Shown: positions 15,112 to 32,276 of the stretch, in pieces | Position numbering within the stretch: position 1 is the first letter of the stretch | Layout of the letters: each line of letters starts with the position of its first letter | DNA from: an uncultured delta proteobacterium | GTDB lineage: Bacteria; Desulfobacterota; Binatia; UBA9968 | Assembly (NCBI GenBank): GCA_963728565.1 | Contig: CAVSLC010000004.1 | Span: 75,984-139,983 of the forward strand | Reading direction: 5' to 3' | DNA: 64,000 nucleotides | Position numbers and translations under genes: made by a program | Notes under the pieces: generated by a model | Database searches by the model: none | What the model was told of the DNA's origin: nothing | The model's input: only the letters and a program-made list of their open reading frames with translations

Positions 15112-15612
15112 CTAGGATTGCTTCCTGTGAGTTCTCTGCTCGAGAGAGCGGCGGGACAAATCTCGGCCCATGCGAAGCGCTGCCTCAACTCCTTGATAGT
15201 AGCCGGGAAGCTGAAGCAGTGTGCGGTAACCCATTCGACTATAAAAGATTTGCGCTTCTTCATTCCCCGCGCGCACTTCGAGATCAACCTTGAATATGCC
15301 CGCTACGACGGCGCATTCTTCCAGCCACTCCATCATTTGGCGCCCGATGCCGCTTCTCCTATAGGGCGGAGCCACAGCGAGAAGATCCAAGTGTGCGTCG
15401 TCATCGCCATAGCGCATGATGGCAAAGCCGGCAATCTCTTCGTGCATAGATGCAACCAGTACGTTGACGTTGGCAGCGCGAATACTTGCTGTGATCCGCA
15501 CCGGCGTCCAGCGCCAGTTGAGACCGTATTCGATCAAATCGCGGGAGAGATTGGCAATGCTGTCGGCGTCTGCCAAGCGCGCCAATCGCAAGGATAGCTC
15601 AGAGTGTATCAT
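15112..15612 (-). CDS. GNAT N-acetyltransferase, RimI-like
   Basis: LAVAPPYRRSGIG acetyl-CoA motif, LEVRAGNEEAQIFY, GYY. Confidence 0.8.
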   Translation of the reverse strand: MIHSELSLRLARLADADSIANLSRDLIEYGLNWRWTPVRITASIRAANVNVLVASMHEEIAGFAIMRYGDDDAHLDLLAVAPPYRRSGIGRQMMEWLEECAVVAGIFKVDLEVRAGNEEAQIFYSRMGYRTLLQLPGYYQGVEAALRMGRDLSRRSLEQRTHRKQS

Positions 15613-16077
15613 CGGGTGCCCGACCTAACGAACCGGATTTTCCCGCAAAGCTGGGGAGCAATCAAGTTCCAGTTCAATGATCTCGGCATGCTCACTGTGA
15701 CCCATATTCCAATTGTAAAACACAGACTGGCCCGTGTCGTCTTTCGATGAACCAATCGTCTGACCGAAACCCGAAAAAGCAGGCGCCGCTTTCGGCGAGA
15801 GCGAAAATTGGCGACATTCCTTACGCGCACCACGCTATAACGGGCTGAGGAAGCGAGGCGGGTTCCGGCTCTTGTTGCCGCAACTTCTATCATTGTAATT
15901 ATCCTCGATACTACTACACCGGTTCATCGGGCATCACACGACTCACGTGTGACACAGATCGATCCGTGCCGCTAACTTTGATTGACAGGCTCCCGAGCTC
16001 ATAGTACGTAACTGCCATCCCTATGAGAACGCCTGGCGGATTTTGAATCGAGAACTTACTCTCTCAAGGATGCACCG

Positions 16078-17073
16078 ATGACCAAGATGACATCGACACT
16101 CAGGTATGGTGCCTGTCTCTTCGTGCTCGTATCGATAACCTCAGTGAGTCGCGGTGACGCGCAGCAAACTCCAAAATTGACGCCGATCAACTACGGGACC
16201 ATCACCCTATCTGCATTGCACTGGCCCTATTTGATCGCAGAGCAGGAAGGCATGCTCCAAAAAGAAGGCTTGGAGATCAAGCGCGTTCTCGGCGGCACTA
16301 CCACGGCCACCTCCCAGGCGCTGGTCGCGGGCTCCACGGATTTCGCGCAGATGAATTTGGTGCAGCTGCTCTCCGCTAATTCGGCGGGAGCCGATCTCGT
16401 CGCGGTAGCCGGTGATACCCTGGTGCCCATTTATGCGCTGGTGGTGCATCCCTCGATCAAGAGTTATGCCGATTTAAAGGGAAAGCGATTAGCAGTCGCA
16501 GGCCCCACCGATCCTTTGAACTACATTATGGCGCGGATGCTCGCGGCCAACGGTCTCACGCCTGCCGACTATGAAATGCTCGGGCTGGGTGGAACTCCAA
16601 CGCGCCTGGCGGCGGTGGAAAAAGGCGGCGTCGCCGGGGCATTGGTCAATCAGCCCTCGGATTTCAAAGCGATCGCCTCGGGAATGCGTTTGCTCGGCTA
16701 CTCGTCGGATTATGTCGACAACTTTCAATACACGGTAACCGGCATGCGCCGCGACTGGGCGCAAGCAAACAGGCCTTTGACCGTGCGCTTTCTTCGCGCT
16801 TTCGCGCGTGCCTGCGAGTTCTTCTATGAGCCAAAAAACAAGGAGGCCGTGCTGCGGGCGTTGATCGACAAGGCGAAAGCCGACCGTGATGATGCCGAAA
16901 AAACCTATAATCTTTTCGTTAAAACCAAAAAATCGATTCCGCAGGATGGAGCCGTGGATATCAAAGGCGCGCGCATCGTCGCCGAAAGCTGGAAGGAATT
17001 CGGTTTGCAAAAGCCGCCTCCGCCGGTCGACGGCGTAATCGATATGAGCTATCTGCAGGAAGCAAGGAAGTAG
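16078..17073 (+). CDS. ABC transporter substrate-binding protein, NitT/TauT (SsuA/NMT1-like) family
   Basis: Signal peptide; ALVAGSTDF, IKSYADLKGKRLAV pattern. Confidence 0.85.
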   Translation: MTKMTSTLRYGACLFVLVSITSVSRGDAQQTPKLTPINYGTITLSALHWPYLIAEQEGMLQKEGLEIKRVLGGTTTATSQALVAGSTDFAQMNLVQLLSANSAGADLVAVAGDTLVPIYALVVHPSIKSYADLKGKRLAVAGPTDPLNYIMARMLAANGLTPADYEMLGLGGTPTRLAAVEKGGVAGALVNQPSDFKAIASGMRLLGYSSDYVDNFQYTVTGMRRDWAQANRPLTVRFLRAFARACEFFYEPKNKEAVLRALIDKAKADRDDAEKTYNLFVKTKKSIPQDGAVDIKGARIVAESWKEFGLQKPPPPVDGVIDMSYLQEARK

Positions 17074-17086
17074 GACCCGTTCAACA

Positions 17087-18244
17087 GTGAAAAACGATGA
17101 GCTCTCATACAACTTAGGCGACACCGTCGATCGCCTGATCTCGGTTCAATATTTCATGTCAGGCGGCGGCTCGGCCCTGACCCGCAAGCCGGTAACCGGC
17201 GTGCTCTACGAAGCCGCCCGCGAAAAGGCCGGCGCGCCGCTCTGTCATCTTGCGGCCAAAACGCTTGCGGACAATGTTCAGCGCGGCGACACCGTGCTGA
17301 TCACCACTGGCCTGATTGCGCCGCCATACATGATCGCCGAAGGCGACGGCCCGATTGCTGCCGCGACGCTTGCGCGGGCTATCGACGTCGGTCTTGACGC
17401 GACTCCGATCATCGTTTGCGAAGCAGTCGTGGTGAAAGCCATGGAGGCTCTTTGCCAGGCCGCCGGCCTAATGCCAAGCGCTCCCGAGCTGGCGGTCGGA
17501 ACGCCGAGAAAAGTCATCGTTCTGCCGTTTCCTCTCGACGACGACTTGGGGCGGCGCGAGGCGATTCGACTTTTGGATCAGTTCAAACCGAAAGCCGTCG
17601 TGGCTATAGAAAAGTTATCCAAGAATGTTAAAGGCATTTATCACAATGGCTTCGGCATCGACGTGTCGTCGGTACAAGCAAAAGTGGATTACCTTTTTGA
17701 CTTCGCGCGCGACCGCGGCATACCTACGATAGGCGTCGGTGACGGCGGCAACGAAATCGGCACTGCCTGTATCGCCGACGCCGTCCGCAAAGTCGTGCCC
17801 ACCGGCGCCAAATGCGGCTGTCCGTGCGAGTCCGGCATCGCCGCCGCGACTCACGCCGACTATTGCGTGTTCGGTTCCAAGTCGAACTATGGCGGCTTCG
17901 CCATCGAGGCCTGCCTGGCCGCGGGACTGGAGCGGCCCGAAATCTTTCACAGCGAAGTTGTCGCTCGGCGCGTACATGAGGCGGGCGCAACCATGGGTCT
18001 GGTGGATCCGTTCACCGGACTCGCGTTCGGTTGGGACGACTTTCCGGTGCACAAAAACGTCAATGAACTTGTCACTAATCTGATTCGCTACATGCTAGCC
18101 GTGCGCGTGGTGCCGCGCTGGTATAAAGATTCGATCATGGGACCGAGCCAGAAGTGGATCCATGAACGCTCGTTCGCCGAAGACTTGGTCTCGCGTTGGG
18201 CGAAATCCATCATTGACTCGGAAAAAGAATTCTTCCCGAAGTAG
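17087..18244 (+). CDS. DUF4392 / glutamate-cyclase-domain protein
   Basis: VLITTG, EGDGPIAA, VAIEK, IGVGDGGNEIG, SNYGG motifs typical of DUF4392. Confidence 0.75.
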   Translation: MKNDELSYNLGDTVDRLISVQYFMSGGGSALTRKPVTGVLYEAAREKAGAPLCHLAAKTLADNVQRGDTVLITTGLIAPPYMIAEGDGPIAAATLARAIDVGLDATPIIVCEAVVVKAMEALCQAAGLMPSAPELAVGTPRKVIVLPFPLDDDLGRREAIRLLDQFKPKAVVAIEKLSKNVKGIYHNGFGIDVSSVQAKVDYLFDFARDRGIPTIGVGDGGNEIGTACIADAVRKVVPTGAKCGCPCESGIAAATHADYCVFGSKSNYGGFAIEACLAAGLERPEIFHSEVVARRVHEAGATMGLVDPFTGLAFGWDDFPVHKNVNELVTNLIRYMLAVRVVPRWYKDSIMGPSQKWIHERSFAEDLVSRWAKSIIDSEKEFFPK

Positions 18245-18247
18245 GTT

Positions 18248-19684
18248 ATGACGAAGATCACCGCCGATATCGTTTTTAAGAACGGCTGGGTCGTCACGCC
18301 TTCCGGTGTCATCGAGGGCGGCATTGCCGTCGCCGACGGAAAGATCGCCGCGGTCGGTAGCGATGCGTTTTTGCCGGATGCAGAGCAGATCATCGACTTG
18401 GGCGGCAAACATCTTCTTCCGGGAGTGATCGATCCCGAGTGTCACCTCGGCGGCCATCGCGACCTGGCCGCCGATTTTAAAAGCGAGACACGGGCCGCCG
18501 CCGCTACCGGCGTGACGACCTGGGGTTTGCAGCTCGTAAGCCTGGCGATCACCGGCGGCGCCGATAAAGTGAAGGGGCCCTCCGATATTCCGAATTTCAC
18601 GAAATCGATGCCAACTTTCTACGAGGCGGCGAAAACCGCGGCCATCGATTTCTTTCTGACGCCGATCATCAGTACTGACGAGCAGGTCAAAGAAATCCCC
18701 TATCTGGCGAACGAACACGGCATCAGCTCCTTCAAGCTCCACTTGCAGATGCAGGGACCGTGGAAGTCCTCATGGCCGGCTTACTTTTTTGACGATGGCA
18801 GCATTTACTCGGTCTTTCAGGAGGTCGCCAAGCTCGGCGCGCCAGCGATCGCGCTGCTTCACTGCGAGAACTGGGAGATCGCCCAGGTGCTGCAGAAGCA
18901 GCTGATGGACGCCGGGCGCAGCGACATGGGCGCCTGGGATGATCGCTCGCCGGCTTTCACCGAGGTCGGTCACGCCCGGACCTACCTTTATTATGCCCGG
19001 ATCGCCGGCTGTCCAATTTACGTCGTGCACTGTACAACGACCGACACCGTCGCGGAAATCGAGAGAGCCAAAGCAGAAGGCTTGACGGTCTATAGCGAAA
19101 TCGGCACCCACTATCTCGTGCTGCACAAGGACGCGTGGAAGATCAACGTGCCGCTGCGCGATCGCTCTACACACGAAAGTCTATGGAAGGCGCTCGCGTC
19201 CGGCGCCATCGATTGCATCGGCAGCGATCACGTCGCGCACACCAGAACCCGCGAGTCCATGCAGACGGGCAACGTCTTTACCACCGTCAGCGGTTTTCCT
19301 TCACGGGTGGAAGGGATGCTGCCGATGATGCTCAGCGAGGGCGTAAATAAGGATCGAATCTCAATCGAGCGCCTGGCCCAAGTCGCCAGTGAAAATCCAG
19401 CGCGCATCTTCGGCCTTTATCCGAAGAAAGGCGCGATCCTGCCGGGCGCCGATGCGGATCTTGTGGTCGTCGATTTGAAGCGGCGTGCAAAGATCACGAA
19501 GGAACTTCTTCACACGGTGACACCCTGGTCCATCTACGAAGGTTGGGATGTCACCGGCTGGCCGGTTATGACTATCGTCCGAGGTAACATTGTGATGGAA
19601 TGGCCTGAGGGCGCTCCTCGCGCCAGGGTCACCGAAACTTCCACGGGCCAGTATCTCAAAAGGCAACTCAGCCGCACAATCTGA
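18248..19684 (+). CDS. Cyclic amidohydrolase (dihydroorotase/hydantoinase/allantoinase family), variant metal site
   Basis: LLPGVIDPECH, SFK, HCEN, VVH, GSDH, NPARIFGLYPKKG, GADAD. Confidence 0.85.
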   Translation: MTKITADIVFKNGWVVTPSGVIEGGIAVADGKIAAVGSDAFLPDAEQIIDLGGKHLLPGVIDPECHLGGHRDLAADFKSETRAAAATGVTTWGLQLVSLAITGGADKVKGPSDIPNFTKSMPTFYEAAKTAAIDFFLTPIISTDEQVKEIPYLANEHGISSFKLHLQMQGPWKSSWPAYFFDDGSIYSVFQEVAKLGAPAIALLHCENWEIAQVLQKQLMDAGRSDMGAWDDRSPAFTEVGHARTYLYYARIAGCPIYVVHCTTTDTVAEIERAKAEGLTVYSEIGTHYLVLHKDAWKINVPLRDRSTHESLWKALASGAIDCIGSDHVAHTRTRESMQTGNVFTTVSGFPSRVEGMLPMMLSEGVNKDRISIERLAQVASENPARIFGLYPKKGAILPGADADLVVVDLKRRAKITKELLHTVTPWSIYEGWDVTGWPVMTIVRGNIVMEWPEGAPRARVTETSTGQYLKRQLSRTI

Positions 19685-20099: not shown

Positions 20100-21027
20100 A
20101 TGCCTCCAGTCATTTCCATTTCGAACTTGACCAAGACCTACGCTTCCGGGTACCAGGCGCTGAAGGGTATCGACCTCGAGATCCGCAAGGGTGAAATCTT
20201 TGCTCTGTTGGGTCCCAACGGCGCCGGCAAAACCACCGTGATCAGCATCATCTGCGGTATCGTGACCCCCACAGAGGGCATCGTTCTCGTGGACGGCCAC
20301 GACATCGTGCGCGAATACCGCGCGGCGCGGACAAAGATCGGCCTGGTGCCGCAGGAGCTGACCACCGACGCGTTCGAGTCGGTATGGGCGACCGTGAGCT
20401 TCAGCCGGGGTCTCTTCGGTCATGCGCCGAACCCGGCTTTTATTGAGCAGGTGCTGCGTGACTTATCTTTGTGGGAAAAGCGCGAAAACAAGATTATGAC
20501 CTTGTCGGGCGGCATGAAACGCCGCGTGATGATCGCCAAGGCCCTGTCGCACGAGCCGGAGATTCTTTTCCTCGACGAGCCCACCGCGGGCGTAGACGTC
20601 GAGTTGCGCCGCGACATGTGGGACGCTGGTGCGAAGCCTGCGGGAAAGCGGCGTCACCATCATCCTGACCACCCACTACATCGATGAGGCCGAGGAGATG
20701 GCCGACCGCATCGGGGTGATCAACAAAGGAGGACTGGTCGTGGTTGAAGACAAGGTCGAGCTGATGAAAAAACTCGGCAAGAAGCAGCTGACCCTGAGCC
20801 TCCTCGACCCTTTGCCATCGCTTCCGCTGGAATTAAGCGAATGGCCGGTGGCGCTGAAGGACGGCGGGCGCGAGCTGGAATACACTTTCCACGGCAATGA
20901 AGAAAGCACTGGAATCCCGATTCTGCTAAAGCGGCTCGGCGATCTCGGCATCGGCTTCAAGGACCTGAACACGCGGCAGAGCTCGCTCGAGGACATCTTC
21001 GTCAGCCTGGTGAGCGATCGCAAATGA
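20100..21027 (+). CDS. ABC transporter ATP-binding protein (YadG-like), +1 frameshift near 20620
   Basis: [21 protein letters not shown]; removing one G from ATGTGGGACG restores [23 protein letters not shown]. Confidence 0.85.
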
Positions 21028-21812
21028 GCACGGCAACAAAACCATCGAGATTCAACAGGCACGGTGTCTGGGCAATCTACAAGTTCGAAATGGCGCGTGC
21101 CTTGCGCACGTTGTTGCAAAGCGTAGTGACGCCGGTGATGACCACCTCGCTTTATTTCGTCGTCTTCGGCGCCGCCATCGGCTCGCGCATGACCGAAGTG
21201 AACGGCATCGCCTACGGCTCTTTCATCGTGCCGGGATTGATGATGCTGTCGCTGTTGACCCAGAGCATTTCCAATGCTTCGTTCGGCATCTATTTTCCGA
21301 AGTTTACCGGGACAGTTTATGAACTCTTGTCCGCCCCGGTCTCCTCTATGGAAATCGTCATCGCCTACGTTGGCGCCGCGGCGAGCAAATCCGTCGTTCT
21401 CGGCCTCATCATTCTGGCAACAGCCGCGCTGTTTGTGCCGATCACGATTCTTCACCCGGTGTGGATGATCGCCTTTTTAGTGCTGACCGCGGCGACCTTC
21501 AGTCTCTTCGGTTTCATCATCGGTCTCTGGGCCAAAGGCTTCGAACAGTTGCAGTTCATCCCGATGCTGGTCGTAACGCCGCTGACCTTTCTCGGGGGCG
21601 CCTTCTATTCGATCGACATGCTGCCGCCGGCGTGGCGCACGGTTACATTGTTCAATCCCGTAGTTTATCTCATCAGCGGATTCCGCTGGAGCTTTTACGG
21701 CACCTCCGACGTGAGTGTCAGCGTGAGCCTGGCGATGACATCGGGATTCTTTGCGATCTGCCTGGCGGTGGTCGCATGGATCTTCAAGACCGGATACCGG
21801 CTGAAGAGCTGA
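21024..21812 (+). CDS. ABC-2 permease (YadH-like)
   Basis: [38 protein letters not shown]; ATGA overlap with the ATPase gene. Confidence 0.9.
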
Positions 21813-22055
21813 CGGAATTGAAACGCACTCGTCGCTCTCGAGCGATATTGTGCGACAAAAGCTTGCCGCATCGCTTAATCGAGGCAAATCACAATCTCCC
21901 CACCGCGGCAGATCACCGCACTCGAGTTGCCACCTTGTCACAAAAGAGCGTGAATGCGCACGCATTCGCCAAGCGATTCGCCCTAGCGCAGGATCCGGCC
22001 ATTGATGGCAAATGCCTTGCGTCAGACACCACCCGATATCTGATCGGAGGAAATC

Positions 22056-22451
22056 ATGAAATCATTTTTGGTCGCTTTTCTCGTAATCTTCTTAGCCGCA
22101 GTATTCGAAGCTCCCGGCGTGCGCGGCAACGAATTCAAAGAACGAGAAGCAAAAATCAGCCAGTACAAGCAATGGCTCGATTCTCTCGGCTCTCACGGTT
22201 CCCAATATTGGATGCGTCTCGATGGCAAGCCGCGGCCTCATCGGTTATATTTGGGCGAAGGCTTCTATCGCGCCGACTTTAAAAGCCAAGAGCGTTTCGT
22301 CGATACGTTCTCAAATTATCTTGCAGGACACCCGGAAAAATTCATGCTTATCGATCTCTTCGATGCGGCCAGCAACAAACCGGTAGGCGAGTATGGATTC
22401 GGCGGCTTCAAACTTTACACAAAGCCTCTGCAGACCGCCGAGCGTCCTTAA
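22056..22451 (+). CDS. Hypothetical exported protein
   Basis: GGAGG RBS, N-terminal signal peptide, 131 aa. Confidence 0.7.
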   Translation: MKSFLVAFLVIFLAAVFEAPGVRGNEFKEREAKISQYKQWLDSLGSHGSQYWMRLDGKPRPHRLYLGEGFYRADFKSQERFVDTFSNYLAGHPEKFMLIDLFDAASNKPVGEYGFGGFKLYTKPLQTAERP

Positions 22452-22706
22452 GATTATTGCAACCGATAGCTCTATAATCTCCCGCCGACGCCGCTTCCGC
22501 TGATGTTGGCCAAGACTAACGGCGCGGAATCTGCTCGACCTCATGCAAGGTGTCGAGTAAACTTCGACCGCCCGCTGCTACTCGAAGGCGCGCGAGAATT
22601 GCTCCAAATCTGCAGCGAGTTTCGCCAAGTCTGGAGCTTGTAAATCTCCTTCCCGCCGGATAGTTGAGGTTCGTCTCAAGCGCCAATAGCCGGGCACTGG
22701 AGGAAG

Positions 22707-24578
22707 ATGATTTCCGCCGAACAAATTACCCAAGCCTTCGACAGCGCAACGCGGCAATTCCGCCAATCCGACGAGTATCAGGAGCTTGTCGCGGGACGTG
22801 CCAGCCCCGAGTCTGCCCGCGAGTTTTTGCGCAACGTTTTTCGCACCCACTTCCTCTCCTCGCATATCGTTGCCCTGTGCTTCGCATCATTGCCGTCGAC
22901 GGCGGCCGAGATGTTGAGAGAAAATCTCCTGGAGGAAATGGGCCGCTCCGACGCCGGAAGGCCGCATTCGGCGCTGCTCCTGGAGCTGGCGCGCGGGGTC
23001 GGCTTTGACCAGAGCGAAATCGACGGGCTGATCGCCGATGCCCGCCGGCGCCTCGCGGTCTTCTGCGCCACTCATGTGCCGGCCTCAACCCTGCGCGAGC
23101 TTTGCCTGGCGGTGTTGCTCGAAACCATGAGCTTCGAGTTCATGCTGTCGCGCTGTTCGAGCGAGATCGCCGCTGCCCTGTCCAGCCGCTTCGGCTTTGC
23201 TAAACCGGCCCTGCACTGGTTTGCGCTCCATTCGGAGGTCGACGTGCGCCACGCCGAAGAGGGGGTGACCATAATCCAGGATTATCTCAGCTTTCACCAG
23301 GCACCCGACGATCTCTTCGAGCAAATCGCGAGTCTGACACTGGGCGATAACATTTTCGCTCGCCACTATTTTCCAGCCGGCTCGAAACAGCGGACCGGCA
23401 CTCGATCGGTCCCGGCCAAGGCGCGGCGTATCGAAGCCCTGACCATTTACCGGCTGCGCATCCCGTTTCACCAAACCTTCCGCCATGCGCTGCACAGCCG
23501 CGAAGAGAGCGACGCGGTGATCGTTAAAGTCGTCGACAGCGACGGCCGCCGCGGTTTTGGCGAGAGCTTGCCTCGATCCTATGTCACCGGCGAGACAACC
23601 GAATCCATGATCGCGCGCATTCGCGAGCACCTGGCGCCTCGGGTGTTTTCGCAATCGTTGGCACCGGGCTGGGAAACTTTCGAGTATCTTCAATCCGTCG
23701 TGTCCGAATGGACGCGACCCGAAGAGCGGCAAAGCAGCATTGCCGCCTGGAACGCCGCCTTTTGCGCCGTCGAGTTGGCATTGCTCGACTGGAGCCTGCG
23801 CGCCGATCACTGCGCCTTGGCCGACTTGCTGCCGCCGACGCGCTACGAAGTTGTCTACAGTGGCGTGATCTCGGCCGATGCACCCGACGACGCGGCCGCT
23901 CTCGCCAAGAGAATGGCCCGGATCGGCATACGCCAGATCAAAGTGAAGGTCGGCACCATTGATGACGCGGCGCGGCTCGAAGCGGTGCGTAAAGCCGTCG
24001 GTGTCGAGGTCGAATTGCGCGCCGACGCCAACGGCGCCTGGAGTGCCGACGAGGCGATCGAACAACTACAACGATTGGCGCGCTTCAAGTTGCAATCGAT
24101 TGAACAGCCGGTGCGGGCCGATGATCTGGCAGGAATGAAACGAGCGCGTCAGGAGAGCGGCGTTGCAGTCATGGCCGATGAGTCGCTGGTCACGTTGGAT
24201 CAGGCGCGCCTCTTGATAGAACTCCGCGCTTGCGATTATTTTAACATCCGACTATCCAAGAACGGCGGCATCGGCGCCAGTTTAGCGATCGCCAGATTGG
24301 CGCAAGAAGCGGGGGTGAAAATTCAGGTGGGTGCGCAGGTCGGTGAGACCGGTATTTTGTCGGCCGCAGGGCGCACTTTGGCGGCGTATTTGCCGGCTCT
24401 GGCATTTGCCGAAGGCTCCTTCGGTACCTGGCTGCTCACCGAGGATGTCACATTCGAAAACGTCGCGTTTGGCTTGGGCGGGCGGGCGCCGCTTTTGCAC
24501 ACCCAAGGGCTCAGCGTCACGGTGAAGGAAGAGGTCCTGGAGCGTCTCGCCGCCGCGAAAATCGAGCTGCGCCGGTAA
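22707..24578 (+). CDS. Fusion of an N-terminal heme-oxygenase-like (CADD/TenA/PqqC) diiron domain and a C-terminal enolase-superfamily (MLE/dipeptide-epimerase-like) domain
   Basis: ENLLEEMG..H, ETMSFE, HSEVDVRH in the first ~225 aa; then GFGE, KVKVG, DANG, IEQP, ADES, NIRLSK; single frame with GGAGG RBS. Confidence 0.85.
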   Translation: MISAEQITQAFDSATRQFRQSDEYQELVAGRASPESAREFLRNVFRTHFLSSHIVALCFASLPSTAAEMLRENLLEEMGRSDAGRPHSALLLELARGVGFDQSEIDGLIADARRRLAVFCATHVPASTLRELCLAVLLETMSFEFMLSRCSSEIAAALSSRFGFAKPALHWFALHSEVDVRHAEEGVTIIQDYLSFHQAPDDLFEQIASLTLGDNIFARHYFPAGSKQRTGTRSVPAKARRIEALTIYRLRIPFHQTFRHALHSREESDAVIVKVVDSDGRRGFGESLPRSYVTGETTESMIARIREHLAPRVFSQSLAPGWETFEYLQSVVSEWTRPEERQSSIAAWNAAFCAVELALLDWSLRADHCALADLLPPTRYEVVYSGVISADAPDDAAALAKRMARIGIRQIKVKVGTIDDAARLEAVRKAVGVEVELRADANGAWSADEAIEQLQRLARFKLQSIEQPVRADDLAGMKRARQESGVAVMADESLVTLDQARLLIELRACDYFNIRLSKNGGIGASLAIARLAQEAGVKIQVGAQVGETGILSAAGRTLAAYLPALAFAEGSFGTWLLTEDVTFENVAFGLGGRAPLLHTQGLSVTVKEEVLERLAAAKIELRR

Positions 24579-24584
24579 CCCTCT

Positions 24585-26272
24585 ATGCGACTGCTCGTCA
24601 AAGCCGCTATGTTCGTAATCCGCCGCCAGTGGACACGCTGGCAAAAGCTCACATCCAAGCCCCAGGAAACTCAGGAGCGACTGCTTCTCGATATCATCGA
24701 GCGCAATCGCTCCACCCGCTTCGGCCGCGATCATGGCTTCAAATCGATCGGCTCTCTGCGCGATTATCGCAAGCAAGTGGCGATCGCCGATTACGAGCGT
24801 CTGCGTCCGTATGTCGAGCTCGTTAACAACGCGCGAGCGCGGCGCGCTGACCGCCGAGCCCATCGACATGTTCACGATGACCAGTGGCAGCTACGGGTGA
24901 TCCCAAGCTGATCCCGGTAACGGCAAAAACACGAGAGAACCACCGGCAATTGACGCGGCTGTGGTATTACCGCGCGCTCGTAGACCATCCCGATCTCTTC
25001 AACGGCAAACTCGTTGGCGTCGTCAGCCCGGAAGTCGAAGGAGAAACAGCCGGCGGTATTCCATTCGGCGCCGCTTCGGGTTTGATTTACCGGAGCAGCC
25101 CGCGTTGGATACAAAATGCTTACGCCGTGCCCTACGTGGTTTCCGAGATTAAAGACTTCGAGGCCAAATACTATCTGATCATGCGTCTTGCGCTGGAACA
25201 GGATATTTCGTTTTTCGCCACGCCCAATCCGAGTACGATTTTGAAGCTCGTCCAAAGCGCAAGTCAGAATAAGTACGACATCATCAAGGACATTCATGAC
25301 GGCACTATCACATCGCGTTTCGACCTGCCGGCCCAAGTGCGTGCGTCGCTCGCGTCACGGTTGAGAAAAAACCTGCCGCGCGCGCGGCGACTGGAATCTT
25401 TAATCAAGCACGACGGAGCGCTCCGACCCAAAGAGTACTGGCCCCGGCTGCGACTTATCGGTTGCTGGAAGGGGGGCAGCGCCGGAGTGCGACTGAAGGA
25501 ATTCGCCGGCTGGTTCGGCAAAACCACACCGGTACGCGATCTCGGTTACATGGCCAGTGAGGCGCAGATGACATTGCCGATATTCGACTCAGGGTCCGCT
25601 GGCATTCTCGCGATCGATAAAAACTTTTACGAATTCATCCCCGAGTCCGAAATCAATGCGTCTGCGCCAACGATCTTGACATGTTCCGAGCTCGAGGAGG
25701 GAAATCTTTATTATATTATTCTTACCACACCCGGCGGATTGTACCGCTACGACATCAACGACGTGATTCGCGTCGCTGGATTTTACAACCAAACGCCGCT
25801 CCTCGAATTCGTCCGTAAAGGCCGCGATGTCACCAGCATCACCGGCGAAAAGTTGCACGTCAACCAGTTAATCGGCGCCATGGCGCAGGCGCAAAGAGTT
25901 GCCGGCGTGGCGGTGCAACATTTTCGCGCTTGCGCCCATGTGGAAAAGTCTCTTTACGTTCTCTCGGTGGAACTGGACGGCGCCATCCCAAGCCGCGAAA
26001 GCCTAGTGCAACTGCTGCATGAACTTGATGCCGGCTTGCGAGAACTCAATGTGGAATATGCGCAAAAACGCGACTCGCAGCGGCTCGGCTCGCCGATCCT
26101 TTGCGTGATGAAGCCCGGTTGGTTCGAGCGCAGAACCCAGATAATTCTCCAGCGCGGCGGGCGCGACACGCAATTTAAAGCGCAGCTTCTGTGCGCCACA
26201 CCGGAAGACCCGGACGAGATAGAGTTCATCGTCCAAACCGCAGGCGCAGCGCCAGTAAAAAATCCAGATTGA
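24585..26272 (+). CDS. GH3 family acyl-acid amido synthetase (ANL superfamily), two +1 frameshifts (~24832, ~24892)
   Basis: TRFGRDHGF, YERLRPYV; corrected MTSGSTGDPKLIP P-loop; LGYMASE, GLYRYDINDV, ITGEKL. Confidence 0.85.
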
Positions 26273-26278
26273 CGCCGC

Positions 26279-26713
26279 ATGCACGGCCGCGCTCTGGCGA
26301 TTCTGACTCTGCTTTTCGCGCTTCGCGTCTTGGGCCAAGCTCTGGTGGTATTTTTTTCGGTCGGCTGGCTGCCGCCCGCAGAGCAATGGTTCTCCGGTCT
26401 GATCCGCTATCCTATTCTTCTCGGCATCCAATTGGTTATGCTGGCCTTGATGTTCAAAATCGCAGTCGATATCTGGCGCGGTCGAAGCTTTTTCGCCAAG
26501 CCGAGACCTGGCTGTTCCCGATTCCTGGTCGCCTGCAGCATTTTGTACGCGGTCAGCATGGTGCTGCGCTACGCTTTAACGATGACGTACCGGCCCGAAA
26601 TGCGCTGGTTCGGCGGCACGATCCCGATTTTTTTCCACTTCGTCCTTGCCGCTTTCGTCTACACCTGGGGTAAATTTCATTCACAAAGGGACAAACTTGC
26701 AATCGCCCCATAA
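26279..26713 (+). CDS. Small integral membrane protein (~4 TM)
   Basis: Hydrophobic segments; starts 6 nt after the GH3 stop. Confidence 0.75.
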   Translation: MHGRALAILTLLFALRVLGQALVVFFSVGWLPPAEQWFSGLIRYPILLGIQLVMLALMFKIAVDIWRGRSFFAKPRPGCSRFLVACSILYAVSMVLRYALTMTYRPEMRWFGGTIPIFFHFVLAAFVYTWGKFHSQRDKLAIAP

Positions 26714-26859
26714 CGGCAGTTCCACAATCGCACAGGACATGAATGTGACCGTGAGCTCCTTCTGTTTATTTCTATGATAGAACGATCTCTAACGATTTTG
26801 GCGCAACCCTCACAAATCGAATTAGGGCGCTGACTGATCCGTGACGAGGTGAACTAATC

Positions 26860-27852
26860 ATGGCTGGCACTCCTATTTTCACCGGCGCACAAGCGATCAC
26901 CCGCCTGCGCGAAACAGTGCACGGTAACGCCGCGAACTTTTACGCGATGTACTCGAGTGTCCTTGGCGGCATCGTCAACGATCCGGCACTCATGGTGCTG
27001 CCGCTCGATGATCACATGGTGCACCGCGGTCACGGCGTCTTTGATACCGCTACACTGACGCACGGGATGCTTTATCAACTCGATCGACATTTGGATCGAT
27101 TGATTCAATCGGCCCAGGGAGCGCGTATTCCGTTGCCGTTATGTCGCGAGGAACTGCGCCAGATCATTCTCGACACTGCTGCGGCAAGCCGCCAGCGCGA
27201 TGGATCGGTTCGCTATTGGCTCTCCGCCGGCCCCGGCGGCTATGGCCTTGGTCCAGCAGAATGTGTTCGCAGTAGTTTTTACGTAATCGTGTTTAAACAG
27301 GAAGCTTATCCGGAAAGCTACTATCATGACGGAATCAAGCTCATAACCAGCAAAGTGCCGATCAAACCGCCGCTTTTTGCCCGCATCAAGTCGACCAATT
27401 ATCTGCCTAACGTCCTGGTCCTCTTAGAAGCCAAAGACCAAGGCGCCGACAACGGAATTTTCATCGACGAGCGCGGCATGGTAGCGGAAAGCTCGAATAT
27501 GAACGTAGCTTTCGTGACGCGGGATCGGGTGTTCCGCCATCCGCCCTTTGAAGCGATTCTTTCGGGGATCACGATCCAGAGAGTTCTCGAGTTCGCTACC
27601 CTGCTCGTGCAGCAAGGGATACTGAATGCTATCGACCTCACCGCTATTTCGGTGCAGGAAGGACGCAAAGCGGCGGAAATGATGCTGATCGGCAGCTCGA
27701 TTAGAGTCGCGCCCGTGGTCGTATGGGACGGGCAAATAATCGGCGACGGCAAACCCGGACCGATTGCCAAGAAGCTGCTGGAAAGGTGGAATGAAGACAC
27801 TACCTCTGCGCAGGATCAGCTCATCATGGTGCCGTACGATCAAGTAAGTTAA
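26860..27852 (+). CDS. PLP-dependent fold-type IV enzyme resembling plant D-amino acid transaminase / 4-amino-4-deoxychorismate lyase
   Basis: AMYSSVLGGI, LPLDDHMVHRGHGVFDT, IKSTNYLPNVL (PLP lysine), ILSGIT. Confidence 0.85.
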   Translation: MAGTPIFTGAQAITRLRETVHGNAANFYAMYSSVLGGIVNDPALMVLPLDDHMVHRGHGVFDTATLTHGMLYQLDRHLDRLIQSAQGARIPLPLCREELRQIILDTAAASRQRDGSVRYWLSAGPGGYGLGPAECVRSSFYVIVFKQEAYPESYYHDGIKLITSKVPIKPPLFARIKSTNYLPNVLVLLEAKDQGADNGIFIDERGMVAESSNMNVAFVTRDRVFRHPPFEAILSGITIQRVLEFATLLVQQGILNAIDLTAISVQEGRKAAEMMLIGSSIRVAPVVVWDGQIIGDGKPGPIAKKLLERWNEDTTSAQDQLIMVPYDQVS

Positions 27853-28130
27853 AGTGAACCTCGCCTGCTCGCGTTTTACCGTCAGACTACCATCCGAGTA
27901 ATTTGGCTTCTTGGTTGGACGCGTGCTAGCCGATGTCATCGGTGCTTGCGCGCGAACCCTATGAACAACTGCGCATCGATGCGCCTGTGACCAATTTTAA
28001 GCGCCATCTGCTTGATCGTGGAGAAATAGAAATCTCCACCGCGGAGCTTACAGTCAGGCCCCACCAGGCGCGTTGATTTTGCGCCCGATGGGGCATGTGT
28101 CACTCGGCTACCATGACCGAACCGCCTCAG

Positions 28131-29573
28131 TTATTCCCTGGTCGTTAGCCTGGACTGAATTTCAACCTGCTGTTGCTGCAGCGGAAGATTGGCAATCTCG
28201 CGCGCTGATCCCGTCAGCTCCAGGATGTGCAAGCCGGTATTGGCCCGGTCAACAATGTAAATCAGACCGCGATCGTCGACCTCAACATTGTTCGTTTGAA
28301 TCGCGATCTTACCAGCGCGCGGGTCGGTATTCGCTGTTGTGGCCGGAACAAAGTACGCGATCTCCTTCGGCTGGAACGGATTGCGGATGTCGACGGCGCG
28401 AACCCCTGCGTTGAAGTAAGCGACGAATAGGATCCGCCCATAATAGATCGGCGTGAAGCTCTCATTCGAGGAGTGCGCGCCGAAGCGCCCGCCACGGCGG
28501 CAGAAGACGCCGTCGGGATCCGGCACGTGGTAGCTCGAAACCACCTGAGGCGTGGACTCGATAGTGACATCGGCGAAGAAGACCATCTGATGGGATTCTC
28601 CGTTGCACTCGTTGGCCGTCGATTCGTTGACGATCGCTAGGATGTCGCGGGTGCCGCCCACATTGAAGGGCCCGAGATGAGGGATTCGCACGCCGAGTAT
28701 CGGGAATGTGGTGTGCGCGCCCACCAGCGGCGACGTATCGAACTGTGCGATGACGGGGAAAGTAAGGTTCTCCGGCGTCGGCTCCGGGGGGCCGGTCAAG
28801 AGCTTCGTGCGGTCGGCGATCTGAACGGTCCCGTTTGAGCTGGTGCCGTGACCGAAATAAACCCGGTGCCCCGCGCTGATCGCGCCGTGCAAATCCGTCG
28901 GAACGTCGCCCGTCGAACCCGGTTCTTGACCTACCAGACCGTAGTCACGGATGTGAACCGGCGACCTCGGATTACTCAAATCAAACACCTGGGTCATGCG
29001 GTCGGTGCGCCATCCAGGCACGCCCGAGACCAGGTACGCAATGCCGGTATCACACTCCCACCAGTTTTTATGTGTTCCCTCGAGTCCGGATACCACCGTG
29101 GTCCGGAGCACTGGCGAGCTTGGATTTCTGACATCATAAATTTGATGGGCTTCATTGCCGTGCGCCCTTAGCAGGAACACTCCCTCCACATCCGCAGAGG
29201 TGACGCCGGGCAAATCCGTGCCATTGCACACCCGCACCATCTGCGCGCCGCCCGCCTCACCCGCTCCGCTGGGACCCGGGATGTGATGGAGATAAACGGG
29301 ATTACGGGGATCGGTGACGTCGACAATAGATACGCCGTTGTTCTCCACAGCGTTGGTCAGCGGATTAAAGGCCGAGCCGCCGTGGTGCCCAATATAGGCG
29401 ATCCATCGGCTGCCCTGCTGATGGATTATCGGCTGATAGGCGGAACGGGCTTGAAGAGTGTTGTGGCCCAGGAGCGCCATATTATTGGAATCGGATGGAT
29501 GCTGCGCCTCCACATGCCCACTGCTCAAGCTCACTGATATGATCATAATTAGTAGGAGTATCAACTTTTTCAT
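28131..29573 (-). CDS. Secreted LVIVD-repeat (beta-propeller-like) protein
   Basis: Signal peptide; repeated IVDVTDPRNP, YDVRNPSSP, FDLSNPRSP, VDIRNPFQP; GGRFGAH. Confidence 0.8.
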   Translation of the reverse strand: MKKLILLLIMIISVSLSSGHVEAQHPSDSNNMALLGHNTLQARSAYQPIIHQQGSRWIAYIGHHGGSAFNPLTNAVENNGVSIVDVTDPRNPVYLHHIPGPSGAGEAGGAQMVRVCNGTDLPGVTSADVEGVFLLRAHGNEAHQIYDVRNPSSPVLRTTVVSGLEGTHKNWWECDTGIAYLVSGVPGWRTDRMTQVFDLSNPRSPVHIRDYGLVGQEPGSTGDVPTDLHGAISAGHRVYFGHGTSSNGTVQIADRTKLLTGPPEPTPENLTFPVIAQFDTSPLVGAHTTFPILGVRIPHLGPFNVGGTRDILAIVNESTANECNGESHQMVFFADVTIESTPQVVSSYHVPDPDGVFCRRGGRFGAHSSNESFTPIYYGRILFVAYFNAGVRAVDIRNPFQPKEIAYFVPATTANTDPRAGKIAIQTNNVEVDDRGLIYIVDRANTGLHILELTGSAREIANLPLQQQQVEIQSRLTTRE

Positions 29574-30204: not shown

Positions 30205-30441
30205 ATGAAGCAGTGGACCATCATAATTTCTTTCATCGGTTTTTTTCTGTCTCGGCCGACCGCGATTTTTTCAGCGGAAACAGCACTGAAGATTGTCAAC
30301 GTGGCGGTTCCGGCGTTTTCCCTGTCGCAGGCGCCGCGGTTTACCGCGCCTGATGCCGGCGCATTCAAAGAATCTGGCATGGAAGTTCGCTATGTCGTCA
30401 CTCCTAGGCGGAACTCTCTAAACAGGAGGACAAAAAGATGA
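30205..30441 (+). pseudogene. Truncated remnant of an ABC substrate-binding protein N-terminus
   Basis: Signal peptide plus VAVPAFSLSQAP...AGAFKESGMEV resembles a NitT/TauT SBP start, but it ends after ~78 aa. Confidence 0.45.
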
Positions 30442-32276
30442 TTTGCACAGCTCAGTTTAGGAAACAAACCGCGATTCTCTGGAGTATCATTGCGCTGTTG
30501 CTGATTCCCGCCTTTAGCGAGGCGCGCATCATCAGCGTCCAGTTGAATCCCCCCAAGATCGCGTTTGGCGGCTACTCGTGGCCGGGTGTCGGGCAGTATG
30601 AGAAGATTACAGGCGTAGCTTATGCTGAGGTTGATCCCGCCGATCGCCGGAACGCAATCATCGTCGATATCGGGCTTGCCGAACCGCAGGCCGCTCCCGG
30701 GCAGCCAGGCAAGACTGCCAATGGGAAAGTCGCGTACTCTTTAAATTTCTATATTCTTAAACCGATCAACTTGAACCAGGTCGATCGGAAACTGAACGGC
30801 TACGGCAAGATGATGTATGAGCCGCCCAACCGGGGCGGCAAGACGTGGACCGCCTTGGGCCGTGTCACCGGCGGCGGTGACGACCCGGCTACCATTACGG
30901 ACCCGACGATCCTCGCGAACTCATTCCTGATGCCGCGCGGCTACACGATCGTCTGGAGTGGGTGGGAGCCATTGGTGCCCCTTGCCAACTTGGCCAGCGA
31001 CCTGGACGCGTCGGTTGCGTTGCCGATTGCCAAAAATCTAAACGGCTCAACGATCACAGGTCCAGCCTACGAATATATCGTAACCTCGGGCAACTCATTC
31101 CAGTTAAGTTATCCGGCGGCCGACACGGCGGACAAAACCACAGCGGTACTGACCCATCGCGTTCATCTTGACGACGTCCCGCAGGTAGTTCCCGCGGCAA
31201 ATTGGAATTACAACTCGGACGGCACCGCGATTAACCTAACCGGAGGATTCATCGCCAACGACATTTATGAGTTCTCGTACACGGCCAAGGATCCGACCGT
31301 GGCCGGTCTTGGCTTTGCGGCCGTGCGCGATTGGGTTTCCTGGCTGCGCTACGAGGCGCAGGATGACACCGGCACGCCCAACCCGTTGGCCAACTACATC
31401 ACCCGGATATATACCGAAATATCCTCGCAACCTGGACGTTTGTTCAACGACTTCCGCAAGCTCGGCTTCAACGAAGACGACCGTGGCAGAATCGGCAGAA
31501 AGGTATTCGACGGCCACATGCAATGGATCGCGGCGGGCAGCGGCATCGGCATGAACTACCGGTTCTCGCAGTCCGGCCGCACCGAGCGCAATCGCCAGAA
31601 CCACTTATACGCTGAAAACCTTTTCCCGTTCGCCAATGTGAGGACGACCGATCCGTTCATGGGCATTACCGCTAGCCGCTATGACGCATGTCAGCTGACG
31701 AACACGTGCGCGTTGGGAGTTGAGATCTATTCGGCCAACGAGTACTGGGTCAAAACGGCTTCACTACTGCACACCCAGCCGGACGGGAGTGCCGACCTTC
31801 CTGATTCCCCGTACACGCGAAATTATTTCATATCCAGCATGCAACATGGCACAGGCAACGCAACGAACAGAGGGGTGTGCCAGCAGTTCGGCAACCCGCT
31901 GAATTCCGCGCCGGTGCAGCGTGCGTTGTTTCTCGCTTTGGATGCATGGGCCAACAACGGCACACCGCCGCCCTCAAGTAGGGTGCCCCGCCTCGACAAC
32001 GGGACACTCGTGCTGCCGGCAGACGCCGGATTCCCCACCGATATACCAGATCCGTTCGGGGAAACGCCCAACGGCAAAGTAACTTACACGGGTCTGAAGA
32101 CCAGTCGTTATCTGTTTAATTATGGGCCTGGCTTTTACGACACCAATAACCCGGCCACCTTCGGTATTCCGAGCATCTTTCCGCCCGTGATCACCCCGCC
32201 GCTTATGCCTCTTATGACTGACGCAGCGGCGCCGATCATCTCGGTGAACGGTCCGGTTTATCCCACCTTCGACTGA
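30438..32276 (+). CDS. Secreted alpha/beta-hydrolase-domain protein, probably C-terminally truncated
   Basis: Signal peptide, GQYEKITG, PPNRGGK, WSGWE, GLGFAAVRD, SQPGR, EYW, PPPSSRVP; ends abruptly at YPTFD*. Confidence 0.7.
   Translation: MICTAQFRKQTAILWSIIALLLIPAFSEARIISVQLNPPKIAFGGYSWPGVGQYEKITGVAYAEVDPADRRNAIIVDIGLAEPQAAPGQPGKTANGKVAYSLNFYILKPINLNQVDRKLNGYGKMMYEPPNRGGKTWTALGRVTGGGDDPATITDPTILANSFLMPRGYTIVWSGWEPLVPLANLASDLDASVALPIAKNLNGSTITGPAYEYIVTSGNSFQLSYPAADTADKTTAVLTHRVHLDDVPQVVPAANWNYNSDGTAINLTGGFIANDIYEFSYTAKDPTVAGLGFAAVRDWVSWLRYEAQDDTGTPNPLANYITRIYTEISSQPGRLFNDFRKLGFNEDDRGRIGRKVFDGHMQWIAAGSGIGMNYRFSQSGRTERNRQNHLYAENLFPFANVRTTDPFMGITASRYDACQLTNTCALGVEIYSANEYWVKTASLLHTQPDGSADLPDSPYTRNYFISSMQHGTGNATNRGVCQQFGNPLNSAPVQRALFLALDAWANNGTPPPSSRVPRLDNGTLVLPADAGFPTDIPDPFGETPNGKVTYTGLKTSRYLFNYGPGFYDTNNPATFGIPSIFPPVITPPLMPLMTDAAAPIISVNGPVYPTFD

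Follow-up and report, generated by a model that had tools for sequence, protein, structure and literature searches.

OlsH, an enzyme of the ornithine-lipid pathway of Singulisphaera acidiphila, is described as a bacterial GH3 that uses ATP to join a free acid and an amino acid into an N-acyl amino acid; its operon also encodes accessory enzymes, and it works with the alpha/beta-hydrolase OlsI (PMC12493201). For heme-oxygenase-like dimetal oxidases (HDOs), the terms enolase, fusion, fused and GH3 are all absent from the searched text of a 2026 review (PMC13108848). Here we describe a locus within a 64,000-nt stretch of DNA from an uncultured delta proteobacterium (the window), in which a gene for an HDO fused to an enolase-superfamily domain is directly followed by a GH3 gene. 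No paper describing such an HDO-enolase/GH3 module was found in the literature, in agreement with the original prediction that no characterised pathway is known to have this gene set.

Results

The locus consists of four genes on the + strand that span positions 22707-27852, and the ORF list and translations confirm the predicted arrangement (gaps of 6, 6 and about 146 nt, all genes co-oriented), with intergenic gaps of 6, 6 and 146 nt. The ORFs lie at 22707-24578 (623 aa), 24585-24911 plus 24884-26272, 26279-26713 (144 aa) and 26860-27852 (330 aa), where 24585-24911 and 24884-26272 represent a single GH3 gene split over three frames. The 255-nt intergenic region 5' of the fusion gene (22452..22706, + strand), which is 3' of a small signal-peptide ORF (22056-22451), is the likely start of the transcription unit. 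Shuffled sequences had promoter-like sites at least as often as the region itself. The 146-nt gap before the aminotransferase gene held no terminator-like or promoter-like site, and Rfam gave zero matches over 21800-28200.

The N-terminal part of the fusion (about residues 1-230; 22707..23396, + strand) is an HDO domain, residues 38-203 of which match Pfam Haem_oxygenas_2 (PF14518; 60.6 bits versus a cut-off of 28.9). The AF2 model is all-helical (pLDDT 88.9). Foldseek ranked CADD at the top (1rcw and 8va9; E 4e-6 to 2e-5, TM 0.64-0.75), followed by HrmI, UndA and RohS, and CADD 1rcw is the nearest solved structure by sequence as well (E 1.9e-4). Residues H48, E76, E77, H87, E139, E144, H175, E177, D179 and H182 are invariant across 39 aligned sequences.

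Residues 241-623 (23427..24578, + strand) form an enolase-superfamily domain of the MLE-subgroup-like type that matches Pfam MR_MLE_N and MR_MLE_C (163.8 bits). The best PDB relatives are the L-Ala-D/L-Glu epimerase YkfB (1jpm, 4e-39) and the dipeptide epimerase 3jva, and in a profile search 3jva (5.9e-66), the N-succinyl-amino-acid racemase-type 2p88 and YkfB 1jpm. Judged by sequence similarity, the nearest kin are thus dipeptide and N-acyl-amino-acid epimerases; none of the NCBIfam equivalog cut-offs was reached by this domain. Invariant features are the KxK motif, the Asp/Glu/Asp metal ligands and an arginine (R515 of the fusion, in the motif FNIRLSKNGG) that occupies the position of the second catalytic lysine, K268 of YkfB in the alignment. 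Among the best 150 library representatives, this position is arginine in 121 and lysine in 4. Because of this substitution, the analogy to the epimerases may fail on substrate as well as on mechanism.

The two pieces of the GH3-family acyl-acid amido synthetase gene (24585..26272, + strand) together carry the Pfam domains GH3, GH3_M and GH3_C, and the best PDB relatives are plant GH3.8 (7dk8, 1.5e-30) and JAR1. Orthologues in relatives are intact, with 551-580 residues. In the window the reading frame shifts from 0 to 1 to 2 around the TSGSTG motif, and the frameshifts noted in the original prediction are indeed present in the sequence, as two single-base insertions. The first extra base lies in a CGCGCG run (24830..24835, at about 24832-24834, + strand; frame 0 to 1), and the second is the T of GGCAGC-T-ACGGG within the TSGSTG motif (24892, + strand; frame 1 to 2). 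Each is missing in all six aligned relatives.

The third gene (26279..26713, + strand) encodes a 144-residue membrane protein with four long helices, all four of which appear in its AF2 model (pLDDT 82.6), and it gave zero matches to Pfam or NCBIfam. It is a frequent fourth member of the module: of 37 genome loci, 25 have a homologue somewhere in the locus and 18 have it directly 3' of GH3, and 14 of 28 metagenome loci from the best 80 of 569 relatives have one as well. Invariant residues are Q20, W37, G40, Y44, Q51, Y90, R97, P116 and H120.

The assessment of conservation drew on genomes and on a metagenome scan with two peptide patterns, one containing the arginine motif; of the 569 relatives, the best 80 were analysed. 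Every one of the 38 assessable genome loci, which come from Binatia, Dehalococcoidia and one Pyrinomonadaceae MAG, has GH3 directly 3' of the fusion, an arrangement so consistently kept that it is beyond chance. Among the best 80 of 569 metagenome relatives, 70 loci could be assessed; GH3 is 3' of the enolase-like gene in 60 of these, including all 38 loci that have both an HDO upstream and sequence downstream. Of the same 70 loci, again from the best 80 of 569, eight lack GH3 and have an alpha/beta-hydrolase paired with the enolase-like gene, and two have neither, so the enolase-like enzyme can function without GH3. Within the best 80 of 569 relatives, 22 loci have the HDO and enolase-like parts as a fusion and another 22 have them as separate neighbouring genes; the two are also separate in L061. 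This is a link of the Rosetta-stone type. A sister form, in which an alpha/beta-hydrolase takes the place of the HDO alongside the enolase-like gene and GH3, was seen both as separate genes and as hydrolase-enolase fusions. Carriers of the module come from at least three phyla and are without exception uncultured MAGs. The full-length fusion was found in only 6 of 40 related genomes, yet it recurs in other phyla, and this patchy spread fits transfer as a unit. Neighbours outside the core differ widely between loci and so offer no consistent clue to the substrate.

The fourth gene (26860..27852, + strand) encodes a class IV (fold-type IV) PLP aminotransferase (Pfam Aminotran_4, 158 bits) whose translation contains the expected motif, DDHMVHRGHGVFDT. 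Of 41 genome loci, 4 have it within 10 kb of the module, each belonging to the genus of the window itself; among the 80 metagenome loci (best 80 of 569 relatives) there is none. The order fusion-GH3-membrane protein-aminotransferase is preserved in three genomes (G004, G005 and G006), whereas in another member of the genus (G007) the aminotransferase is 2.2 kb upstream, beyond an oppositely oriented gene. The family is far broader than the module (5560 matches at E <= 1e-30), and the genome encodes three class IV aminotransferase genes, including this one. In the PDB it is most closely related to archaeal BCATs such as 5mqz, and no NCBIfam equivalog cut-off is reached (for D-amino-acid transaminase, 123.7 versus 320 and 104.3 versus 277 bits). 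The aminotransferase is a genus-specific neighbour and not part of the conserved module. The proposed gene-neighbourhood comparison therefore upheld co-occurrence of the fusion with GH3 and, less strictly, with the membrane protein (25/37), and did not uphold that of the aminotransferase (4/41 and 0/80).

Discussion

The analysis establishes the identity of the domains, their pattern of ligands and motifs, and a strict linkage of the enolase-like and GH3 genes across phyla, and the conserved NRPS/PKS-free module of HDO-enolase fusion and GH3 that had been predicted is borne out by the 38 of 38 genome loci in at least three phyla. The module is a widely conserved yet unstudied gene set. We propose, with moderate confidence, that the locus is one copy of a conserved HDO/atypical enolase/GH3 module, usually accompanied by the membrane protein, whose enzymes build an N-acyl amino acid and modify it by oxidation, with the aminotransferase as a neighbour and the frameshifts as errors. 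From the chemistry of its family, the GH3 would adenylate a carboxylic acid with ATP and join it to an amino acid to yield the N-acyl amino acid. By analogy to its epimerase relatives, the enolase-like domain would hold the Mg2+-chelated carboxylate of the conjugate while the lysine of KxK takes the C-alpha proton. The invariant arginine in place of the opposite-face lysine points to a likely one-base reaction (beta-elimination, dehydration or another enolate-derived step) rather than a two-base racemisation. The fused or adjacent HDO would then oxidise the same molecule with O2 at its two-metal site, by hydroxylation, desaturation or oxidative decarboxylation. The product is probably a modified acyl-amino acid, and the membrane protein suggests that it is hydrophobic or exported. 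We infer the order GH3, enolase, HDO. The HDO and enolase may instead make an acid that the GH3 couples afterwards; action of GH3 first is favoured over oxidation and rearrangement before coupling because the closest relatives of the enolase-like domain act on N-acylated amino acids.

Were the GH3 frameshifts real, the module copy in this strain would be a recently inactivated pseudogene. Consistent with this, neither insertion is inside a homopolymer, the two are just 60 nt apart, and the independent environmental contigs cover the second site and do not reach the first. At the second site, however, contigs of runs X2 and X4 (95-99% alike) omit one base at about 24890, and both bases are missing from all six aligned relatives. 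The same assembly also has 1-nt insertions, compared with two relatives, in an ABC ATPase gene (20623) and a minus-strand gene (15613), and on another contig its Aas orthologue is split into three pieces and contains stops. Moreover, dN/dS of GH3 after the shifts (0.172) is close to that of its neighbours, the fusion (0.173) and the membrane gene (0.172). Both insertions are most likely assembly errors, and the pseudogene, and with it the feared decay of the locus, is unlikely in view of the intact GH3 in six relatives, the neighbour-like dN/dS and the other indels. A pathway of all four genes, with the GH3 coupling an acid from the fusion to a D-amino acid provided by the aminotransferase, is in keeping with the co-oriented genes and the lack of terminator-like and promoter-like sites in the 146-nt gap, the preserved order in three genomes, and D-amino-acid-related genes (D-glutamate cyclase-like and hydantoinase-like) upstream in the same genus. 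It is nonetheless highly doubtful given the linkage of the aminotransferase in one genus alone, its displaced position in G007, the two other class IV genes in the genome, the breadth of its family and its scores below the D-amino-acid transaminase cut-offs. Since the gene is unlinked in relatives outside the genus, its predicted role as a pathway member was not borne out, and coupling to a D-amino acid is without support.

The module could also be catabolic or serve detoxification or salvage: an acid or N-acyl amino acid from the environment would be conjugated by the GH3, or processed by the whole set, and the enolase-like enzyme and HDO would break it down instead of building a product. Several loci have amide-cleaving neighbours: L061 and L104 an S15 peptidase, L097 both an amidohydrolase and an M20 peptidase, and the window a hydantoinase-like gene. 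A GntR regulator of the kind common in catabolic operons is 5' of the module in L061 and L097, and MLE-subgroup enzymes include catabolic cycloisomerases. However, GH3 enzymes consume ATP for amide synthesis, which is unusual in catabolism, the peptidase neighbours are not conserved, and the recurrent small membrane protein and strict three-part linkage are a better match for a dedicated product; we regard this reading as distinctly improbable. A folate-related route, in which the HDO acts as a self-sacrificing p-aminobenzoate synthase of the CADD type while the GH3 ligates pABA to glutamate, draws on CADD as the nearest solved structure by both sequence and fold, on GH3.12 (PDB name: 4-substituted benzoates-glutamate ligase) among the GH3 matches, and on the label ADC lyase given automatically to the adjoining aminotransferase by one source. 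It is extremely unlikely: the HDO is only 16-18% identical to CADD and scores 25 bits against the TIGR04305 cut-off of 200, CADD Lys152, which we take to be the amino-group donor, aligns with Ile154 of the window protein (HMMER alignment), and the obligatory enolase-like partner would be left without a role.

The window HDO shares with CADD, HrmI, UndA, RohS and BesC the helical heme-oxygenase-like fold and the His/carboxylate set (H87, E144, H175, D179 and H182, with E76/E77), but it is only 13-18% identical to every solved member, falls below the CADD family cut-off and has an enolase-superfamily domain as fusion partner. That domain has the two-domain fold, KxK, Asp/Glu/Asp ligands and VTGE-type 20s-loop motif of YkfB (1jpm/1tkk), 3jva, 2p88 and 3q45. 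Unlike these four relatives, all of which have the second catalytic lysine, it has the invariant arginine, and it has an HDO or alpha/beta-hydrolase as fusion partner or neighbour and is coupled to GH3. The GH3 has all three domains of the plant enzymes (GH3.8, JAR1 and GH3.12) and aligns end to end with GH3.8, with counterparts of the nucleotide-binding motifs (TSGSTGDPK, YMASE and YRYDINDV), but its identity to them is low, its host is bacterial and it shares an operon with oxidase and enolase-like partners. The aminotransferase has the Aminotran_4 domain of class IV enzymes (5mqz, ADC lyase and D-amino-acid transaminase), its IKSTNYL aligning with IKSLNYL of 5mqz, although it is below every equivalog cut-off and its linkage to the module is confined to one genus. 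With OlsH and OlsI, as far as that source describes them, the sister form shares the pairing of a GH3 with an alpha/beta-hydrolase (PMC12493201). An intact orthologue of the window GH3 scores only 117 bits versus the OlsH cut-off of 620, and the sister-form hydrolase 26.6 versus 385 for OlsI. The Ols operon, as described there, has neither an enolase-like enzyme nor an HDO, whereas in the module the enolase-like partner is obligatory and usually accompanied by an HDO.

Gene arrangement

The fusion of a heme-oxygenase-like dimetal oxidase (HDO) with an enolase-superfamily protein is encoded on the + strand at 22707–24578 (623 aa), and Pfam places Haem_oxygenas_2 at residues 38–203 and MR_MLE_N/MR_MLE_C at residues 253–610. 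It is followed on the same strand by a gene of the GH3 family (acyl-acid amido synthetases), listed as two ORFs (24585–24911 and 24884–26272) with the Pfam domains GH3, GH3_M and GH3_C, by a gene for a 144-aa membrane protein (26279–26713), and by a class IV aminotransferase gene (26860–27852; 330 aa, Aminotran_4), the three intergenic gaps being 6, 6 and 146 nt. The source is a 4.53-Mb MAG of 28 contigs that is 80.6% complete. Directly upstream lies a + strand ORF (22056–22451) encoding 131 aa with an N-terminal signal-peptide-like segment; a 273-aa ORF at 21461–22282 was rejected as the upstream gene, being mostly an overlap with an ABC permease gene and probably spurious. Rfam gave no match at E ≤ 1 within 21800–28200. 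Promoter and terminator scans returned no greater number of sites than shuffled sequences did, with none in the 146-nt gap, and were uninformative on co-transcription of the aminotransferase gene.

Conservation of the module

The enolase-like gene is strictly linked with GH3 and HDO genes. Among 40 related genomes, a tally that takes in two unpublished genomes (G012 and G018, both rows without the fusion), the full-length fusion is present in six; five of these are from the genus of the window, which has seven other members, and the sixth is from another genus in the family. A seventh genome has a fragment of it at a contig end. The order fusion, GH3, membrane protein and aminotransferase is kept in three of these relatives (G004, G005 and G006). 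In G007 the aminotransferase gene is 2.2 kb upstream, with a TctC gene of opposite orientation in between, and a following membrane-protein gene is absent; G014 keeps the fusion and GH3 only. The fusion has 624 matches in a 90%-clustered collection, the best 120 of which are 73–96% identical and 619–640 aa long. Fusion representatives are scarce in a 50%-clustered library (64% and 45% identity), which has numerous enolase-like proteins of ∼380 aa that stand alone (36–47% identity) and also fusions of 683–711 aa that join an alpha/beta-hydrolase to an enolase-like domain.

A scan of species-representative genomes with a fusion-only alignment (A2) yielded 43 loci, which belong to Binatia, to Dehalococcoidia and, in one MAG, to Pyrinomonadaceae. 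GH3 lies directly 3′ of the fusion in all 38 assessable genome loci, and the membrane protein is found in 25 of 37, directly after GH3 in 18. Metagenomes were scanned with an enolase-only alignment and the best 80 of 569 relatives were kept, a sample that is biased for the Arg residue discussed below because one of the two search patterns includes the Arg motif. Within these best 80 of 569, 70 loci were assessable for the downstream gene; GH3 follows the enolase-like gene in 60, an alpha/beta-hydrolase takes its place in eight that lack GH3, and both are missing from the other two. Upstream of the enolase-like gene, the same best 80 of 569 have an HDO in 44 loci (fused in 22 and separate in 22) and an alpha/beta-hydrolase in four; every HDO plus enolase locus with downstream sequence (38/38) has GH3, and the membrane protein occurs in 14 of 28 loci. 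Of the originally predicted operon, the fusion and GH3 thus stay together in 38 of 38 assessable loci in the genomes, and GH3 accompanies 38 of 38 HDO plus enolase loci with downstream sequence in the best 80 metagenome relatives.

A sister module combines an alpha/beta-hydrolase (Hydrolase_4), an Arg-type enolase-like gene and GH3, the first two either as separate genes or as the 683–711-aa hydrolase-enolase fusion (loci L014 (G010:C401), L109, L119, L123 and L145; proteins P0186, P0190 and P0260). In a more distant subgroup (36–40% identity) an alpha/beta-hydrolase gene comes after the enolase-like gene, and GH3 was not found in the locus (L129, L134, L135, L138, L139, L141, L142 and L149).

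The aminotransferase had been counted as the fourth gene of the operon, an assignment that the comparison does not support: it accompanies the module in 4 of 41 genome loci, all in the genus of the window, and in none of 80 metagenome loci. Its genome has two further class IV genes, three in all. Its nearest relatives are archaeal BCATs (5mqz, 5.2e-40) and it missed all equivalog cut-offs; its family comprises 5560 matches at E ≤ 1e-30, of which the best 120 are all in bacterial or metagenome records. The corrected gene set for the window therefore has three or four parts and excludes the transaminase.

Integrity of the GH3 gene

The reading frame of GH3 shifts twice inside 60 nt in the window, through two 1-nt insertions on the + strand, one at ∼24832–24834 within a CGCGCG run and the other a T at 24892 inside the TSGSTG motif, such that the single frame of ∼550–580 aa expected of GH3 is not present in this copy. 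The breaks are most likely assembly errors. A real, very recent inactivation of the window copy is unlikely in view of the following evidence. Both extra bases are absent from all six aligned relatives (G003–G007 and G014), each of which has one open GH3 frame. Contigs of two public soil runs (95–99% alike) also have one base fewer at ∼24890, a comparison that bears on the second site alone as 24818–24854, with the first insertion site, is outside contig coverage. No sequencing run contained half of the sampled window words, the top share being 0.37. The dN/dS value relative to G005 is 0.172 for GH3 after the shifts, compared with 0.173 for the fusion, 0.172 for the membrane-protein gene and 0.194 for the aminotransferase gene.

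Lesions of the same type occur elsewhere in this assembly. The ABC transporter ATPase gene at 20100–21027 consists of two overlapping ORFs (20100–20687 and 20629–21027), the split being caused by a 1-nt insertion at 20623 which is absent from two relatives. A 1-nt insertion at 15613, likewise missing from both relatives, lies where minus-strand ORFs 15112–15612 and 15609–15893 abut, and these are probably parts of a single gene that an assembly indel has interrupted. The LplT-Aas orthologue on another contig (G000:C28:127794–131182; L150 and L151) is in three pieces with internal stops and is 71% identical to the L036 protein, further evidence for indels throughout the assembly, which we flag as indel-prone. 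Hence, the frameshifts that were originally noted do exist in the window, but intact relatives, dN/dS and the other indels speak against a decaying locus.

Variable neighbours

An LplT-Aas gene on one side of the module and a BioB-like gene on the other are found in ∼20 Binatia loci, in a fixed order: Cu-oxidase_4 (− strand), LplT-Aas, fusion, GH3, membrane-protein gene, BioB-like radical SAM gene and DUF3617 (L031–L045 and L064). The Aas gene beside the module scores 1394 bits against PRK08633 (cut-off 1221). LplT-Aas is directly upstream of the module in most other Binatia and on another contig in the genome of the window, while in G007 Aas adjoins BioB and the module is located further on, which indicates that the module behaves as its own unit. 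Matches to the fusion or to GH3 are split in several records whose contig names are of the long-read style (L035, L039, L040, L044, L045 and L064).

Some Dehalococcoidia loci add a flavin monooxygenase, an opposite-strand membrane-protein gene and a luciferase-like monooxygenase, and others have housekeeping neighbours only. Where the HDO and enolase-like genes are separate, the neighbours include GntR regulators, S15 or M20 peptidases, an amidohydrolase and a methyltransferase, as well as lipid enzymes of the APP1-like and Mpo1-like kinds. The HDO and enolase-like genes are separate in the Pyrinomonadaceae MAG (L061, 8382–17417), where the flanks encode an APP1-type phosphatidate phosphatase, an LCM-type methyltransferase, an S15 peptidase and an Mpo1-like 2-hydroxy fatty acid dioxygenase.

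Upstream in the window, 17087–19684 holds two genes that are 3 nt apart. The first is D-glutamate cyclase-like (GLUCM-like_C, 194 bits), and the second encodes a hydantoinase/dihydropyrimidinase-like amidohydrolase, whose score for that family (264 bits) is below the cut-off of 393. Only G005 and G006 keep this pair, together with an ABC-2 transporter, upstream of the module. Downstream, a 612-aa Abhydrolase_10 protein is encoded at 30438–32276. Five Dehalococcoidia loci have homologues with 35–37% identity to it at a distance of a few kb from the module (L047–L049, L063 and L065; ∼16150–19120, − strand); in L049 a single long ORF covers the homologue and OGG-type glycosylase domains, perhaps an artefact of ORF calling.

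Properties of the encoded proteins

The GH3 pieces in the window score 59.6 and 121.2 bits for GH3, 80.3 for GH3_M and 57.5 for GH3_C (Pfam PF03321, PF23571 and PF23572; each cut-off 23.6), placing all three domains above the gathering cut-off, and intact relatives reach 228–253 bits. The alignment of the intact orthologue to the plant enzymes GH3.8 and JAR1 runs from end to end.

The enolase-like part has both the N- and C-terminal domains of the MLE subgroup (PF02746, 28.5 bits; PF13378, 163.8 bits), and its top relatives in a PDB comparison are the dipeptide epimerases 3jva, 1jpm and 3q45, plus 2p88. The metal ligands and the KxK motif line up with K160/K162, D191, E219 and D244 of YkfB, and K172, K174, D200, E226 and D251 are invariant in a second alignment (A4). 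In racemases of the dipeptide-epimerase type, two lysines on opposite faces exchange the alpha-proton. The position of the second catalytic lysine at the end of strand 6 (YkfB K268), which is Lys in all four of the best PDB relatives, is an invariant Arg in both A2 and A4. Among the best 150 library representatives, a sample unbiased for this residue, there are 121 with Arg, four with Lys, one with His and 24 without the motif by the search pattern. Assignment as muconate cycloisomerase, DgcA, OSBS or L-Ala-D/L-Glu epimerase was rejected as every NCBIfam equivalog cut-off was missed (scores/cut-offs of 133.5/335, 114.1/400, 109.2/200.7, 99.6/500 and 90.2/343 bits). At E ≤ 1e-30, the enolase-like family is represented in the library by 687 clusters of 50% identity.

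Pfam identifies the N-terminal domain of the fusion as an HDO (PF14518, 60.6 bits; cut-off 28.9). Its AF2 model (pLDDT 88.9) has the HO-like helical fold and matches CADD, HrmI, UndA and RohS in Foldseek with a probability of 1.00 and 13–18% identity, and the closest solved structures by sequence are CADD (1rcw, E 1.9e-4) and BesC (7twa, E 0.017). The predicted metal ligands E144, H175, D179 and H182 line up with E142, H174, D178 and H181 of CADD; these four residues, H87 and E76/E77 are invariant among 39 sequences, and we infer that E76/E77 and H87 provide the ligand pair of the first helix. A CADD-type pABA synthase was rejected (TIGR04305, 25 bits versus a cut-off of 200), and the donor Lys152 of CADD aligns with Ile154.

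The 144-aa membrane protein has four long helices with invariant Q20, W37, Y44, R97 and H120. It belongs to no Pfam or NCBIfam family and falls only into unnamed clusters of the protein atlas. Foldseek gave no PDB match at E ≤ 0.001, and a wide VIA-align search returned helical hairpins only (top Z 7.5). Small ORFs 3′ of GH3 in L061 and L121 were rejected as homologues (18% identity). A hydrophobic product is weakly suggested by the membrane protein and, in some lineages, by lipid-related neighbours.

Proposed pathway and relation to known systems

We regard the module as a candidate GH3-based acyl-amino-acid pathway whose partners form new subgroups, one in the enolase superfamily and one among the HDOs. 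By family chemistry, GH3 would use ATP to couple a free acid to an amino acid, giving an N-acyl amino acid on which the enolase-like domain may then act before the HDO oxidizes the putative conjugate with O2. The steps may also run in reverse order, and the module may have a catabolic role; GH3 acting first is favoured because the relatives of the enolase-like domain all use N-acylated amino acids, the class of compound that GH3 produces. A one-base reaction such as elimination is likelier than racemization since Arg replaces one of the two lysines. A more specific proposal, which we advance tentatively and consider rather improbable, is that the Arg-for-Lys enzymes are a new functional subgroup carrying out a one-base reaction on fresh GH3-made N-acyl amino acids, such as beta-elimination to an enamide, with O2-dependent chemistry by the attached HDO to follow, such as oxidative decarboxylation or hydroxylation.

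If this more specific proposal is correct, abundant uncultured soil bacteria (Binatia, Dehalococcoidia and Acidobacteriota) would make modified acyl-amino acids or amino lipids of a class not known so far. The product of the module may be a new type of signal or membrane lipid based on an acyl-amino acid. Unusual oxidative reactions are being drawn from HDOs in rapidly growing number, and the enolase superfamily is a textbook case of predicting function from active-site residues. Here GH3, HDO and enolase-like genes are locked together across phyla, in soil-abundant lineages with no cultured members, and the enolase-like member has a catalytic residue changed family-wide. Identification of the product would give two well-studied superfamilies a new reaction and assign a function to the 687-representative enolase-like family.

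No description of the HDO, enolase and GH3 gene set was found in the literature searched, including a 2026 HDO review (searched by terms). Bacterial GH3 proteins are numerous, and the single characterized example met in that literature is the lyso-ornithine lipid synthetase OlsH, which is described as coupling ornithine with fatty acids (PMC12493201). Orthology to OlsH was rejected as the intact orthologue (L019:9879–11561) scores 117 bits against NCBIfam NF052613, and three other module GH3 proteins score 89.7–111 bits, versus an equivalog cut-off of 620. OlsH/OlsI is the closest characterized system, but the module has other partners and its GH3 proteins score below the OlsH equivalog cut-off.
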